From an uncultured Clostridia bacterium (GTDB taxonomy: Bacteria > Bacillota > Clostridia > TANB77 > CAG-508), in assembly GCA_944392635.1 (NCBI GenBank), contig CALXXH010000002.1, forward strand, positions 1-35,892: a stretch of 35,892 nucleotides of DNA. The letters are read 5' to 3'. Shown here in pieces: positions 1 to 26,008 of this stretch; the stretch's first letter is position 1; every line of letters starts with the position of its first letter. The notes under the pieces are model-generated. The model was given only the letters and a program-made list of their open reading frames with translations, did no database searches and had not been told where the DNA came from. Made by a program: the position numbers and the translations under genes.

Positions 1-1289
1 TCTAATTGTACATATATATTTCCTTTTGATTGTGGATCTATATTTAATATTGCTTCATTTCCTCCACCGATTATTATTTTTGTATAGTTATCTACATTTT
101 CATTTGTTGTTGTATAATTTACTTCTGTTCCTGAAACTATACTTCCATCTGCATTCATTTGTGTTCCTATTCCAACTATATTTGCATATTTTGTATCATA
201 ATAATCTTCTAATTCATATATTTGTGTTTTTAGAGTTGTTGCTTGGTTCTTGATTGATATTACATATGTCATTTTTACACTCAATTTATCATCTGCATTT
301 TCTCCATCTTTATACATTATATCTGATGCATATAAATATCTTGTATATGACATTGATCCATATAGTCCTTCTTCTTGAAATTTTACTTGTGGCTCTAATT
401 CATGGGCCTCTGTTACTCCTTCATCTGCAAATTCATTTGCAAATACACCGTTTTCTTCCCATAAATCTTCATTTAATCTATCTGCATATACATATATATG
501 TTCTGCTCCTGCTACAGTCACATTTGCTCTTTCTATATCTTTTACTACTGATAAATCTGGTTGCTCTCTTTGATATAGTCCCATATTTATGTTTTCTATT
601 TCAGTTGTTCCTTGTTTTCTAATATCTTCTGCACTCTTAATGTCTGATAAATATCCACTTCCTCCTACTGATGTATATCCATTATATGTTGTTGCTGTAA
701 TTAAATATTGTTCATCTGTTTCATTTATTGGGAATAATTGTCCATCATATCCATATTCAACATTCTCTCCATAGTTTACACTACTTTTTTGTGTATTTGT
801 ATTATAGTCATAATTTATACTATGTATTTGCTCTCCATTTGAATTATTTGACTTTCCTACATTTTCTTGGTTATTATCATCATCTGCTATTTGTGCATAT
901 TCTGCATTAAATATGTCTCTTTCTTCTCCTTCTAATGCTTTTGAACCATTCTCATTTAATATATCTAATATTGGTACTGGCGTATAACTCATTCCATTAT
1001 ATGTGAATTCTATATAGTAATTATCAAGTTCATCTATTAAAACGTCTACCATTCTATATGCTCCATTTGCATCTGTCTTTATTTCATTTACTTCTTCACC
1101 TGAATCTGTTTCAAAACTAATTGTATTTCCATTTCCATCTTTTAATCTTACTGTTACATTTGCAACTAGCTTATCCCCATTTCTTTCATCTGTATCTGGA
1201 GCTGTATATAGATAATCTCTTACTGATGTTTTGCTACTTATCATGTCTTCCCATACATATCCTGAAAGTTTGATATATTTTCTTCTGTT
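1..1289. repeat. Copy 1 of a near-identical ~1.29 kb tract shared by B3 and B2 (partner at 9690..10954); truncated by the window edge.
   Basis: Base 1 aligns to 9690 (offset 9689). After a 24-nt indel the offset becomes 9665. The shadow ORFs 728..910 and 10393..10575 give identical 60-aa translations, and 589..774 versus 10254..10439 differ at 2 residues. Similarity stops abruptly at 1289/10954. Confidence 0.9.
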
Positions 1290-3239
1290 ATTATATGTAA
1301 TTGTACTAAATCCTGAATCAGTAACCCCTGATGCATCTGTTAAATCATTTAGTCTGTATCTTTGAGCTGCTGAACCATTATTAGTATGTACTTGCACATT
1401 TGTCGTATTAGCTGATGAACCATTAGTAATATCCATATATAATCCATTACATTTTGAAACTAATGAATAATTTCCATTTCCTTCATCTTGTATCTTCCAT
1501 TTTTGCGCATCTGTATCATTTCCTTGATATATTTGCACATTTGCACCTGGTGAAGTACTTGCTCCTGCTACTTCTACATATTTATTAGCAGATAATGAAA
1601 TTATTGAATAATATCCTTCCCCTAAATATCTTATATAGAATTTTTGTGCAATTGATTTATTCATATCATATAATGCAACATTTGCACCATTATATGTATA
1701 TGCATTGGTTACTTCAATTACTTTATTAGCCCCTACATTTGATTGGATTTCATATGTTCCATCTTCTATAACTTTTTGATCATCATCTATAATATTTGAT
1801 TCAGGAACTGTTGTATATGATTTTTGTCTAGTTACCTCTATTGTAGAAATAGCACCTGTTCCAGTTTCACTTCCATTATCCCAAGATATATAATCATCAT
1901 CTAATTCATATCCGTAATAATCATCACCTACTGAAATCTCTTCTACAATATATGTACCCACTAAAATATTATGAATTTGTATTAATCCTTCACTGTCTGT
2001 TATGAATATTGTAGCTTCACTTTCATTAGTAGTTGTAGTCATATTACTAAAATAAACTTCACCTTTTGCTTCACTTATTGGCTCTCCATTTTCATCAATT
2101 CCTATTACATATTCACTATTTTCATTCATAACTCTATATCTTATATTTTCCATTGGCATTCCACTATCGCCATAATCTGGATCTTTTTTTACTATTTCAA
2201 GGTTTCCTGTTTGTTTTTCATTAGTCAAACTATATGTTCGAAGTATTCCTGAATATATATGTACTTCTTCACTTTCAAGTATTTCATATCCATAATGTCC
2301 ATTTGAAACTTCACTTATTTGATATACTCCTGGAGTTAAATTGTCAACATGAATTGATCCATTTTCATCTGTTGTAAATGTTTCGTCATATCCTAACTCA
2401 TCACTTTTTACATTTATTTCTACATTTGGAAGTTTAACATCACTATCATCTGCATCTTGTTTGATTATATCTAAACCTGCATTAAAGTTTACCCATTGAA
2501 CAGTAGCTGATGTATTTTCATCCCAATAATCATCACCTTCTTCATATACATAATCAGTAGTAACAACTCCTTGGTGATTTTTGTAATAATTAACTGCATC
2601 ACAAGTTCCTCCAATATATGTATAATGTCTTGATCCTGTTTTAGTCCAATGACGATGAAGGCTTCTTGACTTAGTTTGTGTAAGACTTACACTACTTATT
2701 CCTCTATCATATAAGGTAGATGATAAACTTATATAAAAATCTATATTTCCTGTACTTCCAAAAGGATTATTACCATTTCCATTTGCATCACATAACCCCC
2801 ATCCATCTATTCTATTACCAGATTTATCTAGTATAGTTATAGTTTGTCCTGTTGTATTAGTAGTTATTTGGAATGGTCCTAAAACATAGTTATTACCTAT
2901 TTTTCTTACACCTATTTGGTCGTTTCTCTTTGATAATTGTACTCCTTCTGATATAGCATTTGTAGCACCATAATTTATTGCCGTAGTATTATTATAATCA
3001 TTACTATATGAACTTTCACTATGATAGCAATATGCATTATCTCCTTCTATATCTGTATGCCAACCTGCTGCTACCCATTCATGATTTGAGCAATATCCTG
3101 TTCCTGTTGGTCCTCCTGAAAATCTATGTTGAGTACGACTTTCATAATGGAAGTTTACCGCAAAAGCATTTCCACAAGTAAACATTCCAACTAGGACAAA
3201 TAGCATTATAGAAACTCCAAGCTTTGATATTTTACCTAT
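1..3239 (-). CDS. B3: third B-type giant surface adhesin paralogue. Its 3' end lies beyond the window start, and no stop, SD or ATG separates it from A3 upstream.
   Basis: Hand translation of the minus frame is open from 7049 down to base 1. The ORF is missing from the track only because it has no stop in the window. From 3239 it reads IGKISKLGVSIMLFVLVGMFTCGNAFA/VNFHYES. This is a 27-residue signal-peptide-like segment in exact register with the B1 and B2 signal peptides, with ATA where they have ATG. It is followed by a Cys-containing head and SpaA/CnaB-like modules (GLDIIKQDADDSDVKLPNVEINVKSDELGYDETFTTDENGSIHVDNLTPGVYQISEV). Next come a ricin-B module and an RRKYIKLSGYVWEDMISSK... stalk almost identical to B2. 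Confidence 0.7.
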   Translation of the reverse strand, partial: MGKISKLGVSIMLFVLVGMFTCGNAFAVNFHYESRTQHRFSGGPTGTGYCSNHEWVAAGWHTDIEGDNAYCYHSESSYSNDYNNTTAINYGATNAISEGVQLSKRNDQIGVRKIGNNYVLGPFQITTNTTGQTITILDKSGNRIDGWGLCDANGNGNNPFGSTGNIDFYISLSSTLYDRGISSVSLTQTKSRSLHRHWTKTGSRHYTYIGGTCDAVNYYKNHQGVVTTDYVYEEGDDYWDENTSATVQWVNFNAGLDIIKQDADDSDVKLPNVEINVKSDELGYDETFTTDENGSIHVDNLTPGVYQISEVSNGHYGYEILESEEVHIYSGILRTYSLTNEKQTGNLEIVKKDPDYGDSGMPMENIRYRVMNENSEYVIGIDENGEPISEAKGEVYFSNMTTTTNESEATIFITDSEGLIQIHNILVGTYIVEEISVGDDYYGYELDDDYISWDNGSETGTGAISTIEVTRQKSYTTVPESNIIDDDQKVIEDGTYEIQSNVGANKVIEVTNAYTYNGANVALYDMNKSIAQKFYIRYLGEGYYSIISLSANKYVEVAGASTSPGANVQIYQGNDTDAQKWKIQDEGNGNYSLVSKCNGLYMDITNGSSANTTNVQVHTNNGSAAQRYRLNDLTDASGVTDSGFSTITYNNRRKYIKLSGYVWEDMISSKTSVRDYLYTAPDTDERNGDKLVANVTVRLKDGNGNTISFETDSGEEVNEIKTDANGAYRMVDVLIDELDNYYIEFTYNGMSYTPVPILDILNENGSKALEGEERDIFNAEYAQIADDDNNQENVGKSNNSNGEQIHSINYDYNTNTQKSSVNYGENVEYGYDGQLFPINETDEQYLITATTYNGYTSVGGSGYLSDIKSAEDIRKQGTTEIENINMGLYQREQPDLSVVKDIERANVTVAGAEHIYVYADRLNEDLWEENGVFANEFADEGVTEAHELEPQVKFQEEGLYGSMSYTRYLYASDIMYKDGENADDKLSVKMTYVISIKNQATTLKTQIYELEDYYDTKYANIVGIGTQMNADGSIVSGTEVNYTTTNENVDNYTKIIIGGGNEAILNIDPQSKGNIYVQL
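1341..1775 (-). other. Ricin-B-type (beta-trefoil, CBM13-like) lectin module inside B3.
   Basis: Codon-by-codon translation gives VIEDGTYEIQSNVGANKVIEVTNAYTYNGANVALYDMNKSIAQKFYIRYLGEGYYSIISLSANKYVEVAGASTSPGANVQIYQGNDTDAQKWKIQDEGNGNYSLVSKCNGLYMDITNGSSANTTNVQVHTNNGSAAQRYRLNDL. It contains three subrepeats of about 45 aa, each ending in a Q-x-[WFY] motif (QKF, QKW, QRY). Confidence 0.65.
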
Positions 3240-3335
3240 ATTAAATTTTAGCTTAATTGCCACAATAGTTAATATAGCTATAATTAATACTATTACTCCA
3301 ATAGATATATACATTCCTAAACCTGTACTTATAGA
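3240..3335 (-). other. A3 C-terminal sorting-signal-like segment (SISTG + TM + KLKFN) with no stop codon after it.
   Basis: Codons were read individually: SISTG is at 3335..3321, LGMYISIGVIVLIIAILTIVAI at 3320..3255, and KLKFN at 3254..3240. Next comes ATA GGT AAA at 3239..3231, which continues into the B3 signal peptide. Confidence 0.8.
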
Positions 3336-6300
3336 AATAATTAATTGTGCTTCTGAATAATCGTCTTCATTAGATTTTCTATTTCCTGGTGTTGAATCTG
3401 CATCATTTACTCCTTCTATAGTATCTACACTTCCTATTTCTGCTGCATTTGTAAATGTACCTGTATCTTCTCCATTCATTGTTTTTGTCAATGTCAAAAC
3501 TATTTCTTTACTTTCACCTGGATTTAAATCTTGATTCATTAAACTTCTATTAACTAATAATTTACCATCAGTTGTCCAGTTAGTATTACCTTTTGAAGAA
3601 AAAGTTAATCCATCAGGTATATAATCATATATTTCACTTACCTTTACTTTTGCTTCTCCTTCATTTGTAACTACAATTTTATATGTTACTGAAACTTCAG
3701 CACCATTAATTTCTTTAGCTCTTATTTCTACTCTACCTAATTTTGTATTATCATATGAATAATATTTTGTTCCTGAATTTGTTGTTACAGAAACATTTGT
3801 TAAATATTTGTCTAGTTTTAAGTCATATCCATTTTTATTTACTAAACCAATATCTATATTATTTGCATCTTGTGTTAAGCTTATAGTATCTGTAACTCCA
3901 ACATTTACTCTAACTCCATTTAAAGTTATTTCTTGCATCGTTACATCAGAGTTTGAACTTTCTGGTACTCCATTTGCATTATATTCTGTTAATAAATAAT
4001 TTTGTGTATTATATCTAAATATTACAATGTAATTTCCTTGCTTTAAATTTGAAAATGTATATCTACCATTATTAATTGTTGTAGTTGCTTTTACATTGTT
4101 TGAGTCTGCCATATCTACTAACATTACTTGTAATCCACTTATTAAAGGTTCATTGTCTTGTCTATTACCATCTCCATTTACATCATTCCAAGAAGTTCCT
4201 GAAATACTATATACTGTGTCATCTGGATTACTTGGTTCTTCTGGATTAGTTGGATTTTCTGGATCTTCTGGATCAGTTGGTTCACCAGGTACACTTGGTT
4301 CATAACCTTCATCAACATTATATGGTAATATGATATGCTTTATGACATTAGATATTTTTGTATCTATTTTATCTATTGTTTCACTTTCAGTTATGTGATC
4401 CATATTAGGAGCTTGAACTATTGCACTGTTTTCTATTTCTGTTCTTTCAAACACAAGTCCAGCTGTGGTTTTAACTGTTATATTTACAGTTTCTCCTTTT
4501 GGTATATTTATATAAATATCAACATTTGGTAATTTATTTCCATCTGTGTCTGTTACTGAAGAATATAGCTCCTCTGTTGCTACTTTTTTTTCACTATATC
4601 CTATTGGTACTTGTACTTCTCCTTCATCACCAGTTACTGTTTGAAATTCTTTATCAAAATATTCATAAGTCACACTTACAGGATTTACATTTTCAGGTAA
4701 ATAATCTAAGACATTTACATATATACCTTCAAGATTACTATTTTCCTGATTCTTTGGTGCACTTATACATTTAATAGAAATATTATAATTTATTTTTTCT
4801 CCATATCTAACTTCTTCACCTTCATTGTCAGAAGACATTGTTACTGACAATTCTGAAACATTATAAGGTATAATATTTTCATTTGTTTTATATTCTTTGT
4901 CATCTACTATAACTACAGCATTTGCTTTTAATTTTACTTCTCCATTTTTTGCTTCTAGCTCTCCACTCTTTATTTGTTCTTTTACAATTGATTCATCACC
5001 TATTATTAGCCCTAGTTTATAGGTTCCACTTTCACTTGCAGTTATTGTAACTTCAGTTCCATTATAACTTATTGAAGCTCCTGTTATTGGTTCTTCATCT
5101 TCTTTAAGGTCTATATTTGTACTATATTGCGTTTTATATGCCTCAAGATATACTCTACCATTTGAAACATTTTGTTCTGTTATAGAAAATATCTTTGGTA
5201 AAGTTAATTTTATTGTTGCTTGTTTCCCTTCTGGAATATCTAAATTAACCCCATAAAGCCATTCATCGTCTGGTCCATCCATTTTTGACCAAAGAAAAGC
5301 TTTTACTTCTGCTTGTTCAACAACATTATTCAAAGTATAATTATAACTTTCAGTATTAGCAATATATACTTTTATATTAGTTATTATCTCTTTTTGTGCC
5401 TCTTCATCTAACAAATCTTTTACTTGCACTTCATATGACTGCTCTATAGTTTGACCAGCTTTTAAAGTACCTATATTTATCTCTTTTTCTTTTAAATCTT
5501 CATCAAAATTATATTGATAGCTATAATCATCTGGAAAACTAAAGTTTGAATCCAATTCTCCATATTTTGTTCCATCTGGTATAGTTCCTACTACTCTTAT
5601 GTCTTCAATATCTTTATCTAATGTATTTGTAATTTTTACATTATATTTTATGAATTCACCTTCATAAATAGTATCACCATCTTTTAGATTTGTATTTCCT
5701 CTTACTGGGTCAATTTCAACTTTTAGTCCTTCAATTTCTTCTACTGTTGCTGTTCTAACACTTTCTTCTACATTTTTTTCTGCTGCCTCAGTAATTGTTG
5801 ATATTAAATCATTTCCTTCATCTAAGATATTTGAATCGTTTTTAGTAAGATTTTGTTCATTTTGTACTTCTTCATAGTTTTCTATCGATACTTCCTTTTC
5901 TATATTTCCTTGTTCAGAAGTAGCATTTGTAGTAAATTCATTAGTATAAAGTAGATTTATTTTACTTTGAGCACTTTCAATATCTTTTTTCAAAATTACA
6001 ACTGCAGATATTTTCAAATCAGTCATTAAACCTAAATCATTTTCACTATATCCTGTTTGTATTCCATTTAGATTTGCAACTATACTTAAATTTCCATTTC
6101 CATCATTCTCAATATATGCATTTTCTAATGTTAAACCATTTGAATAAACAACAGATGTATTATTTATTATAACTTTTTCAACTTGATTTGGTAATTGTAT
6201 TCTTACAGTTGGATTCTTAAAAAGATTATTTCTTATAGATGTTGAGTCTAAAGTAATATCAAATGTAACTTCATTTTGCTTTCTATTAGTCCATTCTGCA

Positions 6301-7521
6301 TTATCTAAATTTAAATTTACACTTGTTTGAGAATCTTTTATTTCTATAATATTTTCATTTTCTACATGATATACTTGTTCTTCTACTATTTCTCCTTCTT
6401 CATTCTCTTTTTCATTTATCCCTACTAAATTAAAGCTTGTAGTAATTTGTGTAATATCTAAATTTAAATTATCACTTTTTATTGCTTTTAAATTTTCGAT
6501 ATATAATGTTCCTACATTTTCAATATTACTTGTTCTAATTATTATTTTATTAACATCTTCATTATATGTAAGTACTATTTCTCCATTTTCGTTATACTCT
6601 GTAGTATTGTCTATTGTAAATAAGACATTTTCATCTACATCCAATATTTCAATTTTTCCATTTTCACCTAAAAGATTTTTTACATCCTCTTGTCTAATTT
6701 TTGTACTTTTATATACTATATCATTATTTCCAGAAAAATAATTATCTTCCGTAAAAGCTATTTTTTGTTGTATATCTTTTTTACTAATCATAATTTCTTG
6801 AGTTTCTTTATATTGAGTATCATAAGTAGTTCCGTTTATTATATTAGATTTAATATATCCATTATATACTTCATCTGTACTATATGTGACAGATGTTAAA
6901 TTTCCTATATTTTCTGTTACGTTTTCTTTGAAAGTCCCTTGACTTTCTATTTCTTTATTATCATCTGTAAATAATGCTGTTTTTAGTTTTACATCATAAG
7001 ATACTTCTCTTTCTGGTTGTTCTCCGTGTATATGTGTCATAATAACAAATTAATATATATTCATCTCTATCTTCTGGACTTATTTGTGTAGTATTTATTG
7101 CTTCTCCATTCTCATTTTCATTACTAACATTTATTGTTAAAGTTCCATTATTTGAATCATAACTATAATCCTCTTCTATGTTAGTTGTTTGTCCATTTGT
7201 TACTTTTGTACTTTTTTCAATTACTTTTACATCATATGGAAATTTACCATCAATTTGATTTAAATTAATGGCTATTTGTGTATTTTTTACTGGATAATAA
7301 ATTTCTCCATATTCAATTCCTGTTTTAAGGCTATATTGTACTAAAGTACCATTCTCCCCACTAGATAAATCATAGTTTACGTACTTATCTAGTCCTCCTT
7401 CAAGAATAATTTTCTCTTCGTCTGCCCCAAAACTTTCTTTAGTCACTATTTGATTCATAATTAGCACTAAAATCGCCAAAAAGATTAATGTAAATATTTT
7501 TCCAAAAGTCCCCTTCTTCAT
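3240..7521 (-). pseudogene. A3: third A-type giant wall-anchored repeat protein. It is interrupted by a +1 frameshift near 7026-7040 and has lost its stop codon, so it reads into B3.
   Basis: GGAGG lies 6 nt before the ATG at 7521. Track ORF 6994..7521 encodes the signal peptide MKKGTFGKIFTLIFLAILVLIMNQIVTKESFGA and the first domain, then degenerates to TRRTTRKRSIL-stop. The +1 frame, open from 7049 with an ATG at 7040, continues protein-like: HGEQPEREVSYDVKLKTALFTDDNKEIESQGTFKEN... It runs on to an SdrD-B-like module (ISGTSWNDVNGDGNRQDNEPLISGLQVMLVD...GRYTFSNLKQGNYIVIFRY), a DUF11-like terminal domain and SISTG. Confidence 0.65.
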
Positions 7522-7555
7522 ACTACGCCTCCAAATCTTAATATCCTATATAACA

Positions 7556-7584
7556 ATTATGTAATCATTTTCAACTTTTTTCAA
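7556..7584 (-). promoter_or_regulatory. Candidate sigmaA promoter of cassette 3.
   Basis: On the minus strand: TTGAAA (7584..7579), a 17-nt spacer, then CATAAT (7561..7556), about 35 nt upstream of the A3 ATG. A second TTGAAA lies 5 nt downstream of the first. Confidence 0.4.
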
Positions 7585-7624
7585 GATAGTTTTTTTGACA
7601 TTATTTAACATAGTATTATTAACG

Positions 7625-7645
7625 TTTAGGGATACTCATTAAGCT
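7625..7645 (-). promoter_or_regulatory. Conserved ~21-nt element upstream of the cassette 3 promoter (partner at 16702..16723).
   Basis: The minus strand reads AGCTTAATGAGTATCCCTAAA here and AGCTCAAACGACTATCCCTAAA upstream of A2. In both cases it sits about 105 nt before the ATG. Confidence 0.3.
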
Positions 7646-7713
7646 AATTACAACAATTAATTATTAAGATTCTTTTACATTTTTGTAACATAATTGTATC
7701 TTTAATTACAGGC

Positions 7714-7745
7714 AAAATAAAAACGGGCATAAACCTTACGCCCGT
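7714..7745 (-). terminator. Rho-independent terminator after B2.
   Basis: On the minus strand: ACGGGC, an 11-nt loop, GCCCGT, then TTTTATTTT. It begins 9 nt after the B2 stop. Confidence 0.7.
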
Positions 7746-7753
7746 AATATTTT

Positions 7754-16864: not shown

Positions 16865-19800
16865 TTAGGAATTTTTAGCTCCGTTTCCTAATCCCTTTTT
16901 CTTAATTACAACTATTCCTACTGCTAATGCTATTAATGCTATAACTCCTACCGTAATTCCTACTATCACTGCTGTATTTGTTCCTGTAGGTGGTGTAATT
17001 ATTACTGTTTCTGCCATATCTTCATCTGTCTCTTTATCTCCTGTTCCAGGTATATAGTTACCTGGTGTTGATACTAAGTCTGCTCCTCCTGTTTTATCTA
17101 CTTCTACCATTTCTGTTTCATTATCATAAGAAATATCCTCTTCACTTGATGATAAAATTCTTGAAACATTTAACATCACATTTGCTGAAGCTGTTGGCTC
17201 TATTTGTGTATCTTTTAGCGCATCTGTATATAATATTGTTTTGTCATTTATTGTAGAAGTTTCATTTTGATATACATCTTCTGCTAATAAGTCTTTTACA
17301 TCATCTAGTTTTTTTACTTGCCACTCTGGATTTGCTTCATTATTAAATGCCCAATCTTTGTCTAGATAATCTATAATTCCAGTTGCACTAATTTTTACTA
17401 CATCTCCTTCTACAATTCCATATTTATAGAAGTTTTCTGATAAGTAATCTAACTCACTATTATTTGTTGCTATAAATTCATAACCTACTTCTAATGTCGC
17501 ACCTTGCATCATTTCATTATCTAATTCAACTCTTACAAGTCCATTATTTGGTTCTGTACTATCAGATGGTTTAATATATGTCACTCCTTGTTTTTCTCCA
17601 GTAATTGTTCCATCATCTTCAATAGTAACATTTGTTATAACTTGACCATTTGCAAGTGTAATTTTTAAGTTTCTAACTTTTTTAGCTAATCCTAAATCTT
17701 GTCTTGCTCTTTCTACAATTCCAAAGTCAACATTATCAATTCTATATGTATATCTATCTCCTGCTGATGCTGTTGTAGTTGTGTCATATTCTACACCTAT
17801 TCCCATTGTTGGTGTTGTAGAATCCATTTTATCTATAGTTGTAGTTGTTCCATTTTCTATATGCTTAATTTCATCATCTATTGCTAATCTTTGTTCATAA
17901 TCATCTAAAGCATCTGTATAACGAATATCTACATCTTTTTTATACCATTCTTTATCACTTTGGTCTCTATCTTTGTTATATACTGTACCTTTATAGTTTT
18001 GTACTGTATATGTTTCATTTCCCCAAGTGTATGTTAATGTATAGTCTCCTGGAATATATCCACTGATATAGAAATCTCCGTTACTATCAGTTGTAGCTGT
18101 ATATACTTTTCCACTTCCTGTATTTTCTGTTAATGTGATTTCTACTCCTTCTATTCCTAATTCTCCATCTTCATATTGTCCACTACCTTGACGTACCTCA
18201 CCTGTCATTAATTCTCCTGTTGTAGAATCTAAGAATACTTTACCTGCAATTTCTCTTGCGTCTGCAACTTCTAATTGTAATGATAAGCTTGCATCTGTGT
18301 CATCTTCATATGTTGATTTATCTTCTGGGTTACAAACTCCTGGGTTTGAGTCTTTATCTATACCAGCATATACATTACCATTTTCATCAAATACTGAATA
18401 TGAATTGATTTCTACAACATTATCAAGATTTTCTTGTCCATTTAATATATTAATTACTGCTTCTCTATTTAATTCAAATTGTACATATATAACTCCATCA
18501 TTTTGTGCCGTTGTTTGTGGATCTAATCTTGTATTGTTATAAATTATAACTTTGTTGTAATTTTCATTATATGTTCCATCTTCATATTCCATATTTCCAG
18601 TTACATTACCTTTTTCATCTACGCCTGTACCTATTCCAACTATACTATATCTACTATCATAATAATCAACTACACTATTTGCTTGAGTAATTAAATTTGT
18701 TGATTGATTTCTTATTGCAATTTTATATGTAATATATACTTTTAGTTCTTTGCTCTTATCTTGTTCATTTACATATTCATAATCTGCTTCATAAATTGCT
18801 CTTGTATATGGCTCTTGTGCATATTTTTCTCCAAATTTAACACCTACATTAAATCCTTCTCCACCATAGTTTTCTGGATGACTAAATCTTTGTGCATATT
18901 CATATGTATGTTCATATCCATTAACTGCAACTCTTACATTTTCAATATCTTTTGCAATTGCCATATCTGGTTGTTCTCTTTCATATAATCCTAAATTAAT
19001 ATATTTAATTTCCTCTTGTCCTTTCTCATAATTATTAATTAGGATAAAGTTTGCAACATCTGTATCTGCTATTATTGTATATTGTCCATTATTAATTAAT
19101 GTTGATTGATGTTGTACTGGATCATAGTTATATGACAATTGATGTTTTTCATTTCCTTCAGCATCTCTAGTATATCCCGTATTTTGTGTTCTTCCTTCTA
19201 CTACACTAAAGTTTTTATTAAATGCATCTCTATTTTCTGGATCTTCTGCTGATTTTGAGCCATTATCTTTATCTAAATGTGGTGTTACATTTGTATATGT
19301 TAATCCATCATATTCAAATTCAATATAGTAATCACCTAATTTTTCTAATAGAACATTTTCAAATAGGTATGAACCTCCATTTGAAGTTGTTGTTTCCATT
19401 ACAGTTGCACCTGTTGTTCTATCTTTTAGTCTTACTGGTACACCATCTAATAATATGTCATTAGTATCAAAATCATCATCATGATATAAGTCATTTCTTA
19501 TCCATTGTTTTTGGTCTTGTTTATCTACCCATACATAACCAGATAATTTAATACGTAATACAATGTTATAGTCAAAAGGTGTAGTAATTTCTTCTGTTGC
19601 TGTATATGGCTCTCTAATAATTAAGTTTTGTAAATATCCATTTGTAGCCTCTAAGAACCAAATTTTAACACCTTTAACATCTAATTTTGCACTTGCTGTA
19701 ACTTTTGTTATTCTAGTTACTCCTGTATCTGCTGGAACTGATATATAGAAATCTCTACCTGATGTAATTCCATCTACTCCATACCAGTATTCACTATTTC

Positions 19801-20455
19801 CATTAAAACTACTATATAATAATCCATTTATACTATTTCCATTTTGGTCAGCAACTGTTACACCTGTAATACTTCCTCCAAATGACCAGTTAAATGGTCC
19901 TATTCTCATATAATCTCTTCCGTCTTTATTATAAGTATGTACACTGATATTATCTTTATTAGTATTATCTGTTATACTTAAATTTCCTACTGTTCCTATA
20001 TAGTTACTAGATTCTGTATCTAACCAGTTTGAACTACCATTTTGGTTACTTGCAAATCCACTATATAATCCTGCATGATATTGTCCAACTGCTTGCATCC
20101 ATGTATACATGAAATTCCAAACAGCATTTGCAACTGGTCCACTTCCTTTTGATCCTCCATTGTCTTGTGATAGTATATATGCAAGTTTAGCATTATAATC
20201 ATGTGTAATTTGTTTTCCTGTATAGTCTGTTGAAGTTTTTCCTTTTATATCTACTTGTGAAATAACTCTATAATAGTTTATACTTCTTAATGCTTGATGA
20301 TGTTCCACACAATAGATATTAGGATCACTTAGATATTGATTATATGTTACTGCTAAATTTTGACCTACATAATATGCAGAACTTACAGTAGATAATCCAA
20401 ATAGTCCAACTATTGCAAATACTATACTAAGAACAATTTTCTTTATTTTACTCAT
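16865..20455 (-). CDS. B1: 1196-aa wall-anchored adhesin, homologous to B2, with a TPPTG sorting signal. Its head has the thioester-type Cys motif but no Gln at the aligned TQXA position.
   Basis: Track ORF, with AAGGAGG 9 nt before the ATG. The signal peptide is MSKIKKIVLSIVFAIVGLFGLSTVSSA. It contains NIYCVEHH, PVANAVW, YMRIGPFNWSFGG (compare B2 YVRVGPFNFSFAG) and IKLSGYVWVDKQ. It also contains GLYEREQPDMAIAKDI, DFGIVERARQDLGLAK and GKVFLDSTTGELMTGE...NGDFYISGYIPGDYTLTYTWG. Confidence 0.85.
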   Translation of the reverse strand: MSKIKKIVLSIVFAIVGLFGLSTVSSAYYVGQNLAVTYNQYLSDPNIYCVEHHQALRSINYYRVISQVDIKGKTSTDYTGKQITHDYNAKLAYILSQDNGGSKGSGPVANAVWNFMYTWMQAVGQYHAGLYSGFASNQNGSSNWLDTESSNYIGTVGNLSITDNTNKDNISVHTYNKDGRDYMRIGPFNWSFGGSITGVTVADQNGNSINGLLYSSFNGNSEYWYGVDGITSGRDFYISVPADTGVTRITKVTASAKLDVKGVKIWFLEATNGYLQNLIIREPYTATEEITTPFDYNIVLRIKLSGYVWVDKQDQKQWIRNDLYHDDDFDTNDILLDGVPVRLKDRTTGATVMETTTSNGGSYLFENVLLEKLGDYYIEFEYDGLTYTNVTPHLDKDNGSKSAEDPENRDAFNKNFSVVEGRTQNTGYTRDAEGNEKHQLSYNYDPVQHQSTLINNGQYTIIADTDVANFILINNYEKGQEEIKYINLGLYEREQPDMAIAKDIENVRVAVNGYEHTYEYAQRFSHPENYGGEGFNVGVKFGEKYAQEPYTRAIYEADYEYVNEQDKSKELKVYITYKIAIRNQSTNLITQANSVVDYYDSRYSIVGIGTGVDEKGNVTGNMEYEDGTYNENYNKVIIYNNTRLDPQTTAQNDGVIYVQFELNREAVINILNGQENLDNVVEINSYSVFDENGNVYAGIDKDSNPGVCNPEDKSTYEDDTDASLSLQLEVADAREIAGKVFLDSTTGELMTGEVRQGSGQYEDGELGIEGVEITLTENTGSGKVYTATTDSNGDFYISGYIPGDYTLTYTWGNETYTVQNYKGTVYNKDRDQSDKEWYKKDVDIRYTDALDDYEQRLAIDDEIKHIENGTTTTIDKMDSTTPTMGIGVEYDTTTTASAGDRYTYRIDNVDFGIVERARQDLGLAKKVRNLKITLANGQVITNVTIEDDGTITGEKQGVTYIKPSDSTEPNNGLVRVELDNEMMQGATLEVGYEFIATNNSELDYLSENFYKYGIVEGDVVKISATGIIDYLDKDWAFNNEANPEWQVKKLDDVKDLLAEDVYQNETSTINDKTILYTDALKDTQIEPTASANVMLNVSRILSSSEEDISYDNETEMVEVDKTGGADLVSTPGNYIPGTGDKETDEDMAETVIITPPTGTNTAVIVGITVGVIALIALAVGIVVIKKKGLGNGAKNS
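16868..16996 (-). other. B1 sorting signal: TPPTG + TM + KKKGLGNGAKNS.
   Basis: The TPPTG codons were verified at 16996..16982. They are followed by TNTAVIVGITVGVIALIALAVGIVVI and KKKGLGNGAKNS. Confidence 0.8.
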
Positions 20456-20475
20456 ATTTCTACATCCTCCTTCCT

Positions 20476-23400
20476 TTATATATCACCTTTTTTAGCTTTT
20501 TTTCTGTATATTACAATACCAATTCCTATTAATGCTAGTATTATAACAACTATTGCACTTATCATTATAGCTCCACCTGTTCTAATACTTAAGATAACAT
20601 CTGCACTACCTAAATCATTTTCTCCTGCTTCTTGATTTCCTGGTGTTGAGTTTACATCTTTAAGTCCTAGGTCATTATAATCCTCAGCAATTTCTGCTCT
20701 ATTGTTTATACGTCCTGTATTATCTTCTGTCATTGATTTTACTAATGTTAAAGTTACTGTTTTTGTTTCACCTGGTGCAATTGGTTCATTTGATAATACT
20801 GATGTATATATTCCATTTTCTGCTTGATACCAATCTTTGTTCATTTCTGAGTTAAATGTTAAATCACTTGGTATATAATCAACAATTTTTCTTGCATATC
20901 CTGTAACATCACCTACGTTTGTAACTTTTATTTGGAATTCAATAATTGCTGTTGTTCCATTTACTCTCTTTGCATCTATCTCAGCTTTTGCCATTGTTTC
21001 ATCTTGATATTCTTTTACTGTTGTTCCACTTGAATTTTGTAAAATTATTTTACTTACATATTTATCTAATTTCAAATCATAATTTTGTAATAAAGCAAGT
21101 CCAATATTTATATTTGAAATATTACCATTATTTACTTCTAATATATCTGTTGAAGCAACTTCTTGGTCAGTGTTTTCTATATTTAAAGTATTCATTAGTA
21201 CAGATGAATTATTATTATCTGCAATTCCTGCTGCTTTATATTTAGTTAATGTATATTTTGTATTATCATAATCAAATACTGCAATATATCTACCATTTGC
21301 TATTTTATCTAATACATATACACCATTTTCATTTGTTGTTGCTTCTAAAACATTTCCATCAGTTGTTTTTACAAAATTATTAGTTTCTGCATTTAATAGT
21401 CTAACCTTTATACCACTTAAAAGTTGTTCTCCTTCATCTTTGCTACCATTTGCATCTTCATCAAACCATGCAAGTCCTGTTATTGTCATATTACCTTTAG
21501 CAATATCATTATCATCTACATCATTATTTCCATTAAAGCTTCCATCATTTGCTTGAATAATATGATTAATCTCAGCCGTTGTTGCTACTCTTTCACCATA
21601 CACTTCTGCATACGCAACATTTGTAATTGCTTCTGCAGTTGTTCTTCCTGCTGAATAGTTAACTACTGTATTTATTACAATTGTTGCATCTTGATTTGCT
21701 TCAATTTGTACTGGTATTTCTAAGTTATTTGTTGTAATTCCTTCAACAGGTGCTCCATTTAGTGTTACACTTTCAATATTTAATTGTGAAGGTATATTAT
21801 CTTTTACTACTAATCCTGATGTTCTTGAAGTACTTGAGTTTTTAATATTAATTGTGTATTGTATTGTATCTCCTGCTTTTACATATTGACTTTCTGTTTG
21901 TGTTTCCATACTTAAATTAATATCAAAACTTTCAACTCTATCTTGCCATTCATTTGAGTTATATTCTTTTTGTCCATCATTTGCAATTACTGAGAATTGA
22001 ATATTATCTGCATTTGAATCTTTAATTGTCATATCATAACTTAAGACCTTTGATTGTCCTGCATCTAAACTACCTATACTAATTTCATCTTGATATTCAA
22101 TTTCTTCTGTTTGTATATTATTTGATGCTTCAGTTATTCCAGATTCTTCAGTTTCTGTAGCAACTACATCACTATCTGTATTATATATATCTCCATCTTC
22201 TTTTCCCATTCCTGTAATTAAGTTTAATCTGCTAACATCTAAGTTATTAGAAATGTTTGTATTTATTTTTACATCTTCAATATTACTATTAGAGATATTT
22301 TCAATAATTGCAAAATATTGTACTGCTCCTGATTCATATAAATCTACTTTTCTATCTGTTACACGTTTTACTGTAACTCTTAAATTTCCAGTTTCAGTTG
22401 TAAGTGTATTTGTATCAGTTTCTATTGTTGCTTCTCCATATTTAATTTGTGCTTTATTCTCAAGTCTTGTTCCTTCTTTAGTATCACTATCTACTCTTAC
22501 CTCATATGAAACTGTTTTTACTTCTCCTACTTCTAAACTATCAATTGTTGTCTTAAATTCTCTATCTTCTAATTCTTCATAATATGAAGCTCCTGTGTAC
22601 TCATAATTTTCTTCTGGTACAACCATTGTTGTTCCTTCTGGTACTTGTGCTGTAACTTCGATTCCAGTCATATTTTGTGAACCTGTATTTGAAACTTCTA
22701 TATTATATCGAATTACTTCTCCATTTTTTACATTTTGAGTAATTTCATTTCCTACACTTGTTGCAGATAATTTTGCATCCACCTTAGGTCCTACACCTGT
22801 TTCTAATGTAATCTCTGTTGAATCTATATTTCCTTCTACTGCAGTTTGTTCATTAGTATAACTTACATTATATGATTCTTTTGCTTGTTTGTTGTATTCT
22901 AAGTTTTCTGGATTTTCTATTGGGTATGAAAACTCAATACTTTCTCCTGTTGCTAAGCTATCTGCTACAACTAAATATTTTTTAGCATCTTGTGTAAATT
23001 CTGTACTCCATCCATTTGCATTATCATTTACATCATTTGTTGCATCTTCATTTTCTGTATAATATGTCTTAACATCTTCTTTACTTACTTGCATACCATT
23101 TAAAATCTTTGTTCCTAAATTGTTTGTTTTACTATCAGTTGGAAATGTACCAAGAATTTTTACATCTTTCATATTATTTTCATTTGTATTAATTACTTCT
23201 GCATTTACATTTAACTGATTTGGAACTTGCGCGCTAAGTAAGTTTACACTTGTATTTTCTTCTTGACCTGTAGTTTCTAATGAAATCTCAGGTATACTAT
23301 TAATTACAGCCATATCTTGTGGTGCAATTATTTTTATTCCTTGTTCTTGTCTTCCTTCATCTTGATATGAATGTGCAATTTCATTTTGATAATACATTGT

Positions 23401-25263
23401 AATTTTAGAATCTAGTGTTGCAGAATTTCTATTTAATTTTAAATTAGCATTAACTACTAATTCTGCTCCTTCAACTGCCATATCTTTATAGTTTGTTTGT
23501 TTTCCTTCTAATGTAACTACAATATTTCTTCCTTGAACATTATAACTTTTAAGCTTTAATTCTCCTTCATATAGAAGTTCTACACTTGTAATTTCAGCAC
23601 TTTGAACTTGTTCTGGTAATTCAAATGTAATTACTGGATTTTGATACAAGTCGTATTTTTCATTATTTGATAATAATGTGGCTCTCATTTCCACAGAATT
23701 ATCTACTACTGTTGATAAAGTGTTTTTATTTATCTCAAATTTACTTTGTGTTGTTGTTTCTTCTAATGTTATATTATTTTCTACTTGTCCTAAATCTTGT
23801 TTGTTATATCCTACTTTACTTATATATCCAACTTGTGAGATTTCAGCTATATTTGATGTTTCTGGAACAAGTTTTTTATAGTTTTTAATATTAAGAGTTC
23901 CTTCTGTTACTGGCTTTGATGTTTCAAATCTTATACTTGCTGGATCCCCACTATATGTAATAACTATATTTTTATCATCATCAATTTGACTTGATGCTGT
24001 AATTCTCCCTATTTCTTCATTATTTTGATTATATACAATTATTTCTCCAGTTTCTCCAAACAATTTATCAAAATTTTCTTTTGAGATAACTGATTTTGTA
24101 TATACTTCTTTTAATAAATTTTGATTAGCATTTTCAGTAATTTCTACACTATTTATTGCTTTTGCCAAATTTATATCTACACTAGTATTTGTAACATATT
24201 CTTTTTCTAATCCAGCATATAATCTTCCTTTATATATACTTGCTTCTTCTGGATATGATGAAATAGTTACAATACTATCTTTTTCTTCACCAGTCAAAGT
24301 AAGCTCTTTAGAAGCTGTTATTTCTTTATTGTCATATAATCTTACTTTTTGTTCTGTAGTAAATCTTTGACCATCCACGTTTGCATCATTATCATATATA
24401 AATGTTAATATAACTTTTTCATTTCCATCTGTTTTCCATTTAATTTCATTATTATTTGCTTCATTTGTAAATTTCATATTAACATTTGATCCATCTAAAG
24501 AATAATCATAATTTGTCATCGTATTAAGAGTTACAACTCTTGATATTTCTGGCATTTCTCCATTAATAGATGGAACTGCAAGTTTTGTTTCAATTTCTTT
24601 TATTGGATAATTATTATCTTTTAATCCTAATTTCCAAGATAATTGAACAACTCTTTTTTCTTGTCCATCTACTGACATTACTTTATTTGTAATTACTTCA
24701 ATATCATTTGATATATTCTCAGCTGTATAGTTTTCTGTAAGAGATAATTTTACTTCTCTTGTTGCCTCAATTGTTTTATCTCTCTCACTACTATCATAAT
24801 ATGTACCATCTAATTTAATTACATTTGTTTTATTCAAATTATCTAAATTAAATATTTCATCTTTATTTAATTCGATCTTTACTTTTGCATCTACTAATGT
24901 ATTTGCATTAATTTGATTAAATGTAATTGTATTTCCTTCTATTTTGTTTACATAGCTACTATCTGTATCTTTTAATGAAAAATTACTATCTTCTATTGTA
25001 ACCTTTCCATTGAAATATCCTTCTTGTTTTACTTGAATTTGCATATATAGATAGATATCTTCTTGATTAGCCATATCTACTGAAGATATTGCTTGATTAT
25101 CTCCATTTACAAAATATGCATCAAATTCAATATTTCTATTATTAGTTTCTACTGTACTTGCTGCATAACTAATAAGACTTGAACCAACAAATAAAAAGTT
25201 TGTTAATGTCAAAGTCATTATTAACAAAATAATCATACTTATTTTAAAAATTTTGTTTTTCAT
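20476..25263 (-). CDS. A1: ~1595-aa wall-anchored multi-repeat surface protein with an SIRTG sorting signal.
   Basis: Track ORF 20476..25281; AAGGAGG lies 8 nt before the ATG at 25263 (MKNKIFKISMIILLIMTLTLTNFLFVGSSLISYA). DUF11-like repeats are present (VKNGEVIRYNIEVSNTGSQNMTGIEVTAQVPEGT). An SdrD-B-like module is present (ITGLAWFDEDANGSKDEGEQ...NGVYVLDKIANGRYIAVFDYD). The terminal domain reads DLKLDKYV...VTNVGDVTG...DVNSTPGNQEAGENDLGSADVILSIRTG. Confidence 0.85.
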   Translation of the reverse strand: MKNKIFKISMIILLIMTLTLTNFLFVGSSLISYAASTVETNNRNIEFDAYFVNGDNQAISSVDMANQEDIYLYMQIQVKQEGYFNGKVTIEDSNFSLKDTDSSYVNKIEGNTITFNQINANTLVDAKVKIELNKDEIFNLDNLNKTNVIKLDGTYYDSSERDKTIEATREVKLSLTENYTAENISNDIEVITNKVMSVDGQEKRVVQLSWKLGLKDNNYPIKEIETKLAVPSINGEMPEISRVVTLNTMTNYDYSLDGSNVNMKFTNEANNNEIKWKTDGNEKVILTFIYDNDANVDGQRFTTEQKVRLYDNKEITASKELTLTGEEKDSIVTISSYPEEASIYKGRLYAGLEKEYVTNTSVDINLAKAINSVEITENANQNLLKEVYTKSVISKENFDKLFGETGEIIVYNQNNEEIGRITASSQIDDDKNIVITYSGDPASIRFETSKPVTEGTLNIKNYKKLVPETSNIAEISQVGYISKVGYNKQDLGQVENNITLEETTTQSKFEINKNTLSTVVDNSVEMRATLLSNNEKYDLYQNPVITFELPEQVQSAEITSVELLYEGELKLKSYNVQGRNIVVTLEGKQTNYKDMAVEGAELVVNANLKLNRNSATLDSKITMYYQNEIAHSYQDEGRQEQGIKIIAPQDMAVINSIPEISLETTGQEENTSVNLLSAQVPNQLNVNAEVINTNENNMKDVKILGTFPTDSKTNNLGTKILNGMQVSKEDVKTYYTENEDATNDVNDNANGWSTEFTQDAKKYLVVADSLATGESIEFSYPIENPENLEYNKQAKESYNVSYTNEQTAVEGNIDSTEITLETGVGPKVDAKLSATSVGNEITQNVKNGEVIRYNIEVSNTGSQNMTGIEVTAQVPEGTTMVVPEENYEYTGASYYEELEDREFKTTIDSLEVGEVKTVSYEVRVDSDTKEGTRLENKAQIKYGEATIETDTNTLTTETGNLRVTVKRVTDRKVDLYESGAVQYFAIIENISNSNIEDVKINTNISNNLDVSRLNLITGMGKEDGDIYNTDSDVVATETEESGITEASNNIQTEEIEYQDEISIGSLDAGQSKVLSYDMTIKDSNADNIQFSVIANDGQKEYNSNEWQDRVESFDINLSMETQTESQYVKAGDTIQYTINIKNSSTSRTSGLVVKDNIPSQLNIESVTLNGAPVEGITTNNLEIPVQIEANQDATIVINTVVNYSAGRTTAEAITNVAYAEVYGERVATTAEINHIIQANDGSFNGNNDVDDNDIAKGNMTITGLAWFDEDANGSKDEGEQLLSGIKVRLLNAETNNFVKTTDGNVLEATTNENGVYVLDKIANGRYIAVFDYDNTKYTLTKYKAAGIADNNNSSVLMNTLNIENTDQEVASTDILEVNNGNISNINIGLALLQNYDLKLDKYVSKIILQNSSGTTVKEYQDETMAKAEIDAKRVNGTTAIIEFQIKVTNVGDVTGYARKIVDYIPSDLTFNSEMNKDWYQAENGIYTSVLSNEPIAPGETKTVTLTLVKSMTEDNTGRINNRAEIAEDYNDLGLKDVNSTPGNQEAGENDLGSADVILSIRTGGAIMISAIVVIILALIGIGIVIYRKKAKKGDI
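20479..20589 (-). other. A1 sorting signal: SIRTG + TM + RKKAKKGDI.
   Basis: The SIRTG codons were verified at 20589..20575. They are followed by GAIMISAIVVIILALIGIGIVIY and RKKAKKGDI. Confidence 0.8.
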
Positions 25264-25307
25264 AATGATGGCCTCCTTCATTTTTCACATTTTTCCATCT
25301 ATTACAT

Positions 25308-25336
25308 ATTATATCGCATTTTTCCAGTTTTTTCAA
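25308..25336 (-). promoter_or_regulatory. Candidate sigmaA promoter of cassette 1.
   Basis: On the minus strand: TTGAAA (25336..25331), a 17-nt spacer, then TATAAT (25313..25308), about 45 nt upstream of the A1 ATG. Confidence 0.5.
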
Positions 25337-25531
25337 CAGTTCTGTTGGATTTTTTAAAGTTTTTATGTAACTTTATATAGGCAACAATAAAATTAAATAC
25401 ACCTTTTTGAAATATAATACATTATTTTTTTATATGTTATTTTCCTACAACAAGAACATATAATTTTGAAAAATCATATAATAAACATAGATTAATATAT
25501 TGTGAATATATTAAAATAAGAGGTGATTTTC

Positions 25532-26008
25532 TTGAATAATATGAATTTTGATGAAAATACAATAAACAAATTAAAAGATATGATGAATAAAGGAGAATTA
25601 AATGATGTTATTTCACAAATCCCACCAGAAATGATTCAAAACTTTTCATCGATGATGTCAAACTCTGGTAATAACAAAAATGAAAATAACAATTCTAATA
25701 ATAATAATAATATAAATAATGCTAATAGCAACACATCTAATAATAATTTTGATTTTAGTAATATTGATATGAATACTATATTAAAAATGCAATCTATTAT
25801 GAGTAAAATGAATAATTCAAATGACCCAAGATCAAATTTGCTATACTCTCTTAAACCATATTTAAGAGAAGAACGAAAAGCAAAGGTAGACCAATATGCA
25901 AATCTTTTAAATGTTGCTAAAATAGCTGAATTGTTTAATAATACTAATAACAACTCTAGTCAAAACATGAATAATAACAATAATAATAGAGAAGGGAATC
26001 CTAAATAA
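25532..26008 (+). CDS. Hypothetical Asn-rich protein.
   Basis: Track ORF 25523..26008 starts at a GTG inside the SD AGAGGTGA. TTG at 25532 (5-nt spacing) or ATG at 25541 is the more likely start. It has long poly-N/S low-complexity tracts flanking MNTILKMQSIMSKM and DPRSNLLYSLKPYLREERKAKVDQYANLLNVAKIAELF. I do not recognise the family. Confidence 0.55.
   Translation: MNNMNFDENTINKLKDMMNKGELNDVISQIPPEMIQNFSSMMSNSGNNKNENNNSNNNNNINNANSNTSNNNFDFSNIDMNTILKMQSIMSKMNNSNDPRSNLLYSLKPYLREERKAKVDQYANLLNVAKIAELFNNTNNNSSQNMNNNNNNREGNPK

Follow-up and report, generated by a model that had tools for sequence, protein, structure and literature searches.

Paired giant surface proteins, predicted to be sortase-anchored adhesins and encoded side by side or in one fused frame, in uncultured gut Clostridia

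Introduction

Characterised class II thioester domains bind their target covalently. Such domains are defined by a Cys motif, [YFL]C-hydrophobic-hydrophilic, and by a Gln motif, hydrophobic-Q-hydrophilic-hydrophobic-hydrophobic, about 200 residues later; the Gln and the Trp of a TQxx-hydrophobic-W motif in helix 2 were reported to be non-essential (PMC6194298). DUF11, renamed CLIPPER, is an isopeptide-stabilised stalk domain of fibrillar adhesins (PMC12617251). The xPxTG motifs are cut at T|G by class B sortases (PMC4155245, PMC3019223): C. difficile SrtB accepts (S/P)PxTG (PMC4155245), and the class B sortase Spy0129 of S. pyogenes takes EVPTG and the VPPTG of Cpa (PMC3019223). In this work, a stretch of 35,892 nucleotides from an uncultured Clostridia bacterium (assembly GCA_944392635.1, contig CALXXH010000002.1; the window hereafter) was analysed, in which three successive cassettes each encode a giant surface protein, A, followed by a second one, B.

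Each cassette probably encodes a co-translated pair of sortase-anchored adhesins and, where A and B share one frame, the fused precursor would be split by sortase and signal peptidase. The cassette would then be a two-adhesin module, whose proteins would be made in a fixed 1:1 proportion and exported at the same place. The parts are of known kinds; what appears undescribed is that the pairing is obligatory and that a sorting signal and a signal peptide together form an internal hairpin. The anatomy, conservation, fusion, folds and motifs of the cassettes are documented below, and adhesion in the gut would be their biological role. All positions are window coordinates, and the G+C content of the window is about 29%.

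Pairing of A and B among relatives

An alignment of B was scanned against one genome per species, and 79 loci were kept of 247 matches, each from an uncultured member of the Clostridia in the gut of humans, mice or rabbits. The open reading frames (ORFs) of the loci were classed by BLASTP against A-specific and B-specific segments. In these 79 species genomes, B lay within 200 nt after A for 90 of 97 complete A genes, the remaining seven being at contig ends (two) or before a broken or unclassified ORF (five), and A preceded 97 of 101 B genes. A second set, seeded with A, comprised 80 metagenome contigs found with an alignment of the A N-terminus; the protein search with the A1 N-terminus had returned 29 proteins, many far below the full length of A and still sufficient for the alignment. 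On these contigs, every complete A gene was followed by B (70/70) and every B gene was preceded by A (55/55). Two more distant A homologues (30-33% identity) kept the A-then-B order, and one locus (L084) read A-B, A-B, A. Between its second and third cassettes this locus carries a small Gp49-family protein and a helix-turn-helix protein, a HigB/HigA-like toxin-antitoxin pair (18807-19471 of L084). The sole B-type gene that has upstream sequence and no A directly before it (L062, 12802-18096 of that locus) lies 3.3 kb after a fused A::B.

The spacer between unfused A and B was nearly invariant, reading TAR, (A)GGAAAGGAGG, 7-10 nt and ATG, with 20-21 nt as the commonest total, and nearly all unfused spacers of 10-27 nt had a GGAGG-class Shine-Dalgarno sequence and a start codon. 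The distance matrices of A and B correlated with r = 0.86, which indicated that the partners were inherited together.

An earlier note, made from the window alone, had regarded A and B as a functional unit rather than a random pile-up of adhesin genes, and the strict order, the near-invariant spacer and the natural fusions described below bore this out. Unpaired A-like and B-like genes, which that note had named as the sign against a unit, were looked for and did not emerge as the pattern in the B-seeded or the A-seeded set. It could be argued that A and B are independent adhesins which share an operon and are co-regulated and co-inherited without cooperation, the fusion being a tolerated accident. 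A and B are each equipped with a separate head, stalk and anchor, and the fused cassettes are essentially one lineage. However, order, spacing and Shine-Dalgarno sequence were kept across about 160 loci and divergent paralogues with almost no unpaired copies, partners were not shuffled between cassette types, and the fused form persists with its hairpin conserved despite strong divergence. Independent action was considered unlikely, and a cooperating, co-translated pair is preferred.

Homologues of B1 numbered more than 950, all from metagenomes or metagenome-assembled genomes. Among the matches listed (120 for B1) no informative name was found, one homologue being labelled 'hypothetical protein', and an exact-sequence look-up of B1 gave no record. 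Neither a name nor a description of the paired arrangement was found in the literature searched, which was limited in coverage. The remark of the earlier note that the pair could be matched to no described system stands for the homologue names, NCBIfam and the literature searched.

Organisation of cassettes 1 and 2

According to the ORF calls, the large genes of the first 25.3 kb are all on the minus strand, and open frames of 1200-2349 codons are not chance products because the DNA has 29% G+C. Cassettes 1 and 2 are minus-strand A-B bicistrons, as had been proposed, with spacers of 20 and 18 nt that contain GGAGG. Their features, with lengths in amino acids (aa), are as follows.

25308..25336, minus strand: promoter-like site of cassette 1, TTGAAA-17-TATAAT, 11/12 consensus positions, a consensus match alone
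20476..25281, minus strand: A1, 1601 aa, with signal peptide, immunoglobulin (Ig)-like head and CLIPPER/DUF11 domains
21148-21477, minus strand: SdrD_B domain of A1, then a terminal CLIPPER-like domain
20575-20589, minus strand: SIRTG of A1, then membrane helix and basic tail
20456..20475, minus strand: A1-B1 spacer, 20 nt, with AGGAAGGAGG just upstream of the B1 start codon
16865..20455, minus strand: B1, 1196 aa, with a 27-aa signal peptide
19553-20377, minus strand: predicted class II thioester-domain head of B1, with Cys49 in IYCVEH (20300-20317) and Gln276 in YLQNLII (19616-19636)
within 16865..20455, minus strand: conserved stalk of B1, about 900 aa, including SdrD_B
16982-16996, minus strand: TPPTG of B1, then membrane helix and basic tail
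16791..16813, minus strand: intrinsic terminator after B1, ACGGGCATACATGTTATGCCCGT then a T-run
12263..16609, minus strand: A2, architecture as A1, with SIRTG at 12362-12376
12245..12262, minus strand: A2-B2 spacer, 18 nt, with GGAAAGGAGGG just upstream of the B2 start codon
7754..12244, minus strand: B2, 1496 aa, with signal peptide, predicted thioester-type head, SpaA insert, stalk and anchor
12098-12115, 11882-11899 and 11345-11365, minus strand: head motifs of B2, LFCTQH, AQVALW and FLQRAEP respectively
7859-7873, minus strand: TPPTG of B2, then anchor
7723..7745, minus strand: intrinsic terminator after B2, ACGGGC...GCCCGT stem and T-run

From the positions of the Shine-Dalgarno sequences, the likely true start of A1 is the ATG at 25263, preceded by AAGGAGG, and that of A2 is the ATG at 16594, preceded by GAGGAGG. 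The site at 25308-25336 was the best-scoring minus-strand promoter-like site in the scanned region and lies upstream of A1; of the promoters that the earlier note had assigned to the cassettes, promoter-like sites were found upstream of A1 (11/12) and A3 (10/12). The hairpin terminators with an ACGGGC/GCCCGT core were likewise recovered after B1 and B2, and these were the sole two minus-strand sites among six terminator-like sites in the scanned region. One promoter and one terminator would frame each A-B pair, A would be co-transcribed with B, and the strong Shine-Dalgarno sequence in the spacer of about 20 nt would couple translation of B to that of A.

The inter-cassette regions 16610-16864 and 7522-7753 share a layout of terminator, AAAAATGTAA, TAGCT..A.GA.TATCCCTAAA and promoter, which is missing from the region upstream of A1; this shared element may be a regulatory site. 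The 10-mer TATCCCTAAA common to the two intergenic regions was not enriched in the window.

Judged by sequence, the three window cassettes are old paralogues, with identities of 24-32% among the A proteins and 28-30% for B1 against B2 and B3. The stalks of B2 and B3 share 1.3 kb at 93.7% DNA identity (1-1305 against 9690-10970), the rest of the cassettes being just 20-30% identical in protein, and their heads remain different, which suggests recent gene conversion between the stalks. This repeat is probably the reason that the contig ends in B3.

The fused A3::B3 frame and its family

The earlier description of three bicistronic cassettes was wrong for cassette 3, in which A3 and B3 are one open frame. 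A single frame of 2349 codons (7049..3) leads from A3 into B3 and off the window end, with the following features.

7556..7584, minus strand: promoter-like site of cassette 3, TTGAAA-17-CATAAT, 10/12 consensus positions, a consensus match alone
6994..7521, minus strand: 5' part of A3, a 175-aa ORF with signal peptide and first Ig-like region, stopping at 6994
3336..7049, minus strand: remainder of A3 in the +1 frame, Ig/CLIPPER region
3888-4205 and 3396-3695, minus strand: SdrD_B and terminal CLIPPER domain of A3
3159..3335, minus strand: in-frame A3::B3 junction hairpin, with no stop, Shine-Dalgarno sequence or ATG
3321-3335, minus strand: SISTG of the junction, then membrane helix 1 (22 hydrophobic residues)
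3222-3254, minus strand: basic loop of the junction, KLKFNIGKISK
3159-3221, minus strand: signal-peptide core of the junction, LGVSIMLFVLVGMFTCGNAFA, ending AFA, then VNFHY of B3
3..3158, minus strand: mature part of B3, its 3' end beyond the window, with Cys/Gly-rich head, two SpaA domains and stalk
1356-1754, minus strand: ricin-B lectin domain of B3, upstream of the stalk

The hydrophobic stretch of A3 is followed by the basic junction loop and the frame continues into B3, with an ATA codon at the position equivalent to the B start. DNA alignment with the intact relatives L020 and L042 revealed one extra base near 7025 in A3, outside any homopolymer run. The separate 175-aa ORF exists because of this 1-nt insertion, which reflects an error of assembly or sequencing, or else a real lesion or pseudogene of the strain.

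Open A::B frames numbered 28 in the fetched loci (26 complete and 2 contig-truncated) and 29 when that of the window was counted, and were 2770-3180 aa long where complete. In all 29 junctions, [SG][ILV]xTG was followed by a helix of about 23 aa and then by a K/R-rich loop of 9-13 aa; a hydrophobic core of about 18 residues came next and led to an AxA-like site (SYA|A, VFA|I and AFA|V, among others). This layout was constant though the fused sequences were strongly diverged, and its geometry obeys the positive-inside rule. The B signal peptide was preceded by a GGAGG-class Shine-Dalgarno sequence and start codon in 0 of 29 fused frames; in two of them, that of the window included, there is just a 4-base GGAG, and the ATG after it already lies within the hydrophobic core. 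Translation of fused B from an internal start was therefore rejected, and B must be made within the long precursor.

That the fused frames or the pairing are artefacts of assembly or gene calling, or cassette 3 a decaying pseudogene, would be in keeping with the frameshift in A3, the contig end within a 1.3-kb repeat 94% identical to part of B2, and metagenome assemblies as the only source. However, the 26 complete and 2 truncated fused frames came from independent assemblies of different studies and hosts, chance cannot account for open frames of about 2770-3180 codons at 29% G+C, and the 3007-residue product was reported by independent gene callers. This explanation is hardly credible, and the fused frame was taken as a real gene form.

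Clustering of A gave one large type of 65 members, always unfused and next to minC, which includes A1/B1; A2/B2 falls into one of several small types, which are unfused as well. The fused family had 25 clustered members, 22 of them fused and 3 with overlapping frameshift-like ORFs, and a second, small fused pair was found besides it. The fusion was considered old and stable but the outcome of few independent events, because it occurs mostly in one lineage plus this second pair. Cassette 3 of the window was left out of the clustering, B3 being incomplete, and was placed in the fused family by its junction design and its DNA similarity to fused relatives.

In the fused form, the helix of the A sorting signal would halt translocation, and the cytoplasmic basic loop would be both the charged tail of the A signal and the n-region of the B signal peptide. 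The hydrophobic core of B would restart export, signal peptidase would cleave after the AxA-like site, and sortase would cleave A at T|G and attach it to the wall. The fused precursor would in this manner yield the same two wall-anchored adhesins. The chances are about even that the cassette-3 type is a natural surface polyprotein of about 3000 residues, with an internal sorting signal back-to-back with an internal signal peptide and with 1:1 release of the products. Literature searches, limited in coverage, gave nothing relevant on sorting signals placed internally, on sortase in combination with an internal signal peptide, or on sortase polyproteins. To our knowledge, no described sortase substrate is built as an internal sorting signal plus an internal signal peptide.

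Domains and heads of the A and B proteins

The DUF11/CLIPPER and SdrD_B domains that had been proposed for A were recovered by Pfam, and its SI[RS]TG signals read SIRTG, SIRTG and SISTG. PF01345 (CLIPPER/DUF11) matched three stretches each in A1 (58.7 bits) and A2 (60.7 bits) at a cut-off of 24.6, PF17210 (SdrD_B) passed its cut-off in the three A proteins as well as in B1 and B2, and TIGR01451 (DUF11 repeat) was the sole NCBIfam result for A. A PDB sequence search with A1 gave no useful result. The AlphaFold2 model of A1 residues 41-450 (pLDDT 79) contained tandem Ig-like sandwiches and one disordered stretch, and Foldseek matched it to integrin alpha-V legs, AgI/II C-domains, SdrD, Bbp, ClfA/B, SdrG and the Candida adhesin Als3 with E values of about 1e-8. 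The TM-scores against SdrD, SdrG, ClfA/B and Bbp were 0.2-0.25, and integrin and AgI/II matched equally well, so that A looks in the model like an MSCRAMM-type adhesin whose head evidence is generically Ig-like. A would be a fibrillar surface protein with an MSCRAMM-like tandem Ig head, a CLIPPER (isopeptide-type) stalk and one SdrD_B.

The most conserved stretch of the type-I A heads was Exx[IM]YKGK[LI], at A1 residues about 346-353 (about 24220-24245), conserved enough to act as a scan pattern. It falls within model residues 297-352, the one region predicted with low confidence and apparently without structure. YKGK of type-I A as a pilin-like acceptor lysine was rejected, as it is not kept in A2 or A3 and no YPK occurs.

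In the B proteins, Pfam found SdrD_B, SpaA and CarboxypepD_reg and additionally, in B3, the ricin-B lectin domain for which the earlier note had proposed a search. NCBIfam gave a far-sub-threshold adhesion-factor match in B1 and sub-threshold lectin-model matches over the ricin-B domain of B3. The B signal peptides of 27 aa were confirmed by reading the translations.

A PDB sequence search with B1 was uninformative, as was a profile search with the aligned B heads, and the B head was identified solely by structure prediction and Foldseek. Residues 27-301 of B1 were modelled by AlphaFold2 using 22 homologues (mean pLDDT 92) as three helices followed by a beta-sandwich, an order that fits the class II fold, in which a beta-sandwich is inserted into a barrel and three-helix lobe. 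The best PDB match by Foldseek was the class II thioester domain 6fwy of E. faecium TIE86 (E 7.7e-6, probability 0.99) and the next was 6fwv of B. anthracis TIE. IYC49VE as Cys motif and YLQ276NLI as Gln motif fit class II with a Cys-to-Gln spacing of about 227 residues, and the Cys, the Gln and the Asn after the Gln were invariant in the alignment of 22 diverse B homologues. A thioester family had been among the matches to be sought, and it was the structure model of the B1 head, and not the sequence models, that matched class II thioester domains. B would be a thioester/isopeptide ('TIE'-type) adhesin, with thioester chemistry, a thioester head and a conserved stalk of about 900 residues, to which some B proteins would add a lectin or SpaA module.

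The TQxx-hydrophobic-W position reads VANAVW in B1 (20117-20134), with Ala also in many orthologues, VQNAIW in many others and AQVALW in B2, and Gln and Ala switch repeatedly at this position inside one orthologous group. Taking VANAVW/VQNAIW as the bond-forming Gln motif, by which the B1 thioester would be lost, was rejected, the true Gln motif being later and invariant (PMC6194298). The cassette-3 type head aligned with the B1-type head over the beta-sandwich part alone (hhalign 95.9%, E 5.8e-9); it retains xC-hydrophobic-hydrophilic and Q[DRE]V motifs and is at most a candidate thioester head. The earlier suggestion of a stalk plus an adhesive head is improbable for the pair, since A and B each possess both a head and a stalk.

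Sorting signals and the question of a sortase

In the window, SIRTG (A1, A2), SISTG (A3) and TPPTG (B1, B2) each precede a hydrophobic stretch, and all save A3 end in a basic tail. In the genome loci, T-G before a hydrophobic helix and a basic tail was found in almost all scored tails (109 A and 122 B), scored tails being those where the search for the last xTG picked the motif rather than the helix. The residue before the T of xTG was variable across the A and B tails and the 29 fused junctions. The A motifs across loci formed the class [SG][ILV]xTG (SIRTG 30, SIKTG 12, GIRTG 10 and others), and the B motifs formed [TV]PxTG (TPATG 28, TPNTG 19, TPSTG 15 and TPPTG 14). The difference in sorting motif between A and B, first noticed in the window, thus extends to two classes conserved family-wide, which need not imply two sortases or two wall locations. 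The xTG stands directly after the last beta-strand without a wall-spanning linker, and LP.TG was absent from all window proteins. The window contains no sortase gene, which agrees with the earlier report of neither a sortase nor a pilin-sized gene. A cognate sortase is assumed, through which A and B would be anchored to the wall and, together with signal peptidase, processed.

Some of these features would suit proteins that are not sortase substrates, A and B being membrane-tethered by their C-terminal helices and the fused form being polytopic with two large external domains. The A motif is without Pro, LPXTG-anchor models were not matched, no sortase was seen in the window or the scanned flanks, and the xTG follows the last beta-strand with no linker across the wall. 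However, the signature of T-G, helix and basic tail recurred in nearly all scored tails and in 29/29 junctions, and xPxTG of B fits experimentally cleaved motifs, so that a membrane tether is very unlikely and sortase anchoring is preferred.

The motifs also bear on a covalent A-B heterodimer, a minimal two-subunit pilus in which a pilin-type sortase would join the Thr of B to a lysine of A or the reverse. One partner alone would then be wall-anchored, and the resulting fibre, about 2800 residues long, would bear a thioester at its tip. In keeping with this, the sorting-motif classes are distinct and conserved, the B motif resembles VPPTG of Cpa, the thioester pilus tip adhesin of S. pyogenes whose link to the shaft is made by a class B sortase (PMC3019223), the pairing is strictly 1:1, fusions exist, and type-I A proteins have the highly conserved ExxIYKGK in a low-confidence linker. 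Against it, no sortase lies beside the genes in the window or in 83 genome-derived loci, although pilus sortases are normally cluster-encoded; the pilin motif YPK is absent from the window proteins and present in only 4/144 A and 3/141 B of the relatives; and the YKGK lysines are not kept in A2 or A3. Both partners moreover carry a complete sorting signal, helix and basic tail, and a pilin is several times smaller than either subunit. A heterodimeric pilus is decidedly improbable, and separate anchoring of the two adhesins is favoured.

Chromosomal site and neighbouring genes

The term island used in the earlier note is misleading. Throughout the clade, the adhesin cassettes occupy the same chromosomal site, with minC on one side and spoIIE on the other, and a mobile island was rejected because this site is fixed. 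The relatives L001-L004 share a neighbourhood of mreC, mreD, PBP2, minC, two small ORFs, A and B. In L001 and L002, A and B are followed by a single 3007-residue gene, an A::B fusion with a window-like junction, and then by spoIIE; in L003 and L004 the contig ends after B.

The housekeeping flank upstream in the window comprises minC, PBP2, mreD, mreC, mreB, radC, DUF4321, a PDDEXK_2 protein, mecA and an M23 peptidase. Two features of this side are listed here.

25523-26008 and 26008-26412, plus strand: two small Asn-rich ORFs between minC and A1, of 161 and 134 aa
32947-33843, minus strand: transposase-like gene of the PD-(D/E)XK family (PF12784), located in the housekeeping stretch from DUF4321/radC to mecA

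The 134-aa Asn-rich ORF has a hydrophobic C-terminus, neither Asn-rich ORF had a Pfam match, and ORFs of similar size were found at the minC/A1 position also in L001 and L003.

Discussion

The co-translated, sortase-anchored pair has to be set against a number of results that weigh on the other side. All sequences come from metagenome assemblies, the window's own fused gene is frameshifted in A3, and the fused cassettes belong for the most part to a single lineage and may have arisen twice. The Foldseek TM-scores were low for both heads (0.26-0.33 for B1 and 0.2-0.4 for A1). The thioester sequence models (Pfam TED, NCBIfam TQXA) matched no B at E <= 0.01, the Gln of TQxx-hydrophobic-W is Ala in the window's B1, and the cassette-3 type head matches the B1 head just over the sandwich and is strongly diverged. 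As to anchoring, the Pfam Gram_pos_anchor and TIGR01167 LPXTG-anchor models matched no window protein, the A motif is without the usual Pro, and NVQTG, the nearest known motif to that of A, was not cleaved by C. difficile SrtB in vitro (PMC4155245). The sortase signature TLxTC was found neither in the window nor in the 10-kb flanks of the 83 genome-derived loci that the scan covered, the 80 metagenome loci lying outside it.

The cassettes fill at least 25 kb at a fixed chromosomal site and are apparently the main giant surface proteins of this group, widespread uncultured gut Clostridia of humans, mice and rabbits. The natural A::B fusion is 'Rosetta-stone' evidence that A and B act together, and the strict pairing would point to a two-step attachment, in which A would bind non-covalently via its Ig-type head and B covalently via its thioester. 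The fused form is a test case for the reading of a sorting signal that is not C-terminal, for one basic loop serving both a stop-transfer signal and a signal peptide, and for the handling of non-LPXTG motifs by sortase. The junction hairpin could be useful to display two proteins from one gene.

Comparison with known systems

Like the substrates of C. difficile SrtB, a sortase encoded elsewhere in the genome (PMC4155245), B has xPxTG, a helix and a basic tail. The B motif differs in starting with T or V rather than S or P, and the A motif has I, V or L at the position of the Pro.

The FCT pilus of S. pyogenes (Cpa VPPTG, Spy0128 EVPTG, Spy0129; PMC3019223), whose surface proteins are co-transcribed, likewise combines differing non-LPXTG motifs with an xPPTG-type motif on the thioester subunit. 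In contrast to this pilus, no sortase or signal-peptidase-like gene was found in the scanned A-B clusters, the window proteins have no pilin motif, a pilin-sized shaft subunit is absent, and A and B are both giant multidomain proteins.

A shares a predicted tandem Ig-like head, SdrD_B, a signal peptide and a sorting signal with the MSCRAMMs (SdrD, SdrG, ClfA/B, Bbp), and above-threshold CLIPPER domains with the CLIPPER/DUF11 fibrillar adhesins (PMC12617251). Unlike in the MSCRAMMs, the sorting motif of A is [SG][ILV]xTG and a downstream partner is obligatory, and the likeness of the heads is generic Ig-like with low TM-scores.

The TIE proteins (B. anthracis BaTIE, E. faecium TIE86 and S. aureus SaTIE; PMC6194298) consist, as does B, of an N-terminal head, an Ig-like stalk and a C-terminal sorting signal, and their heads share the Cys motif, the Gln motif and the spacing with that of B. 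Compared to them, B is two to three times longer, carries [TV]PxTG instead of LPXTG as its sorting motif, and always comes directly after, or fused to, a second giant adhesin.

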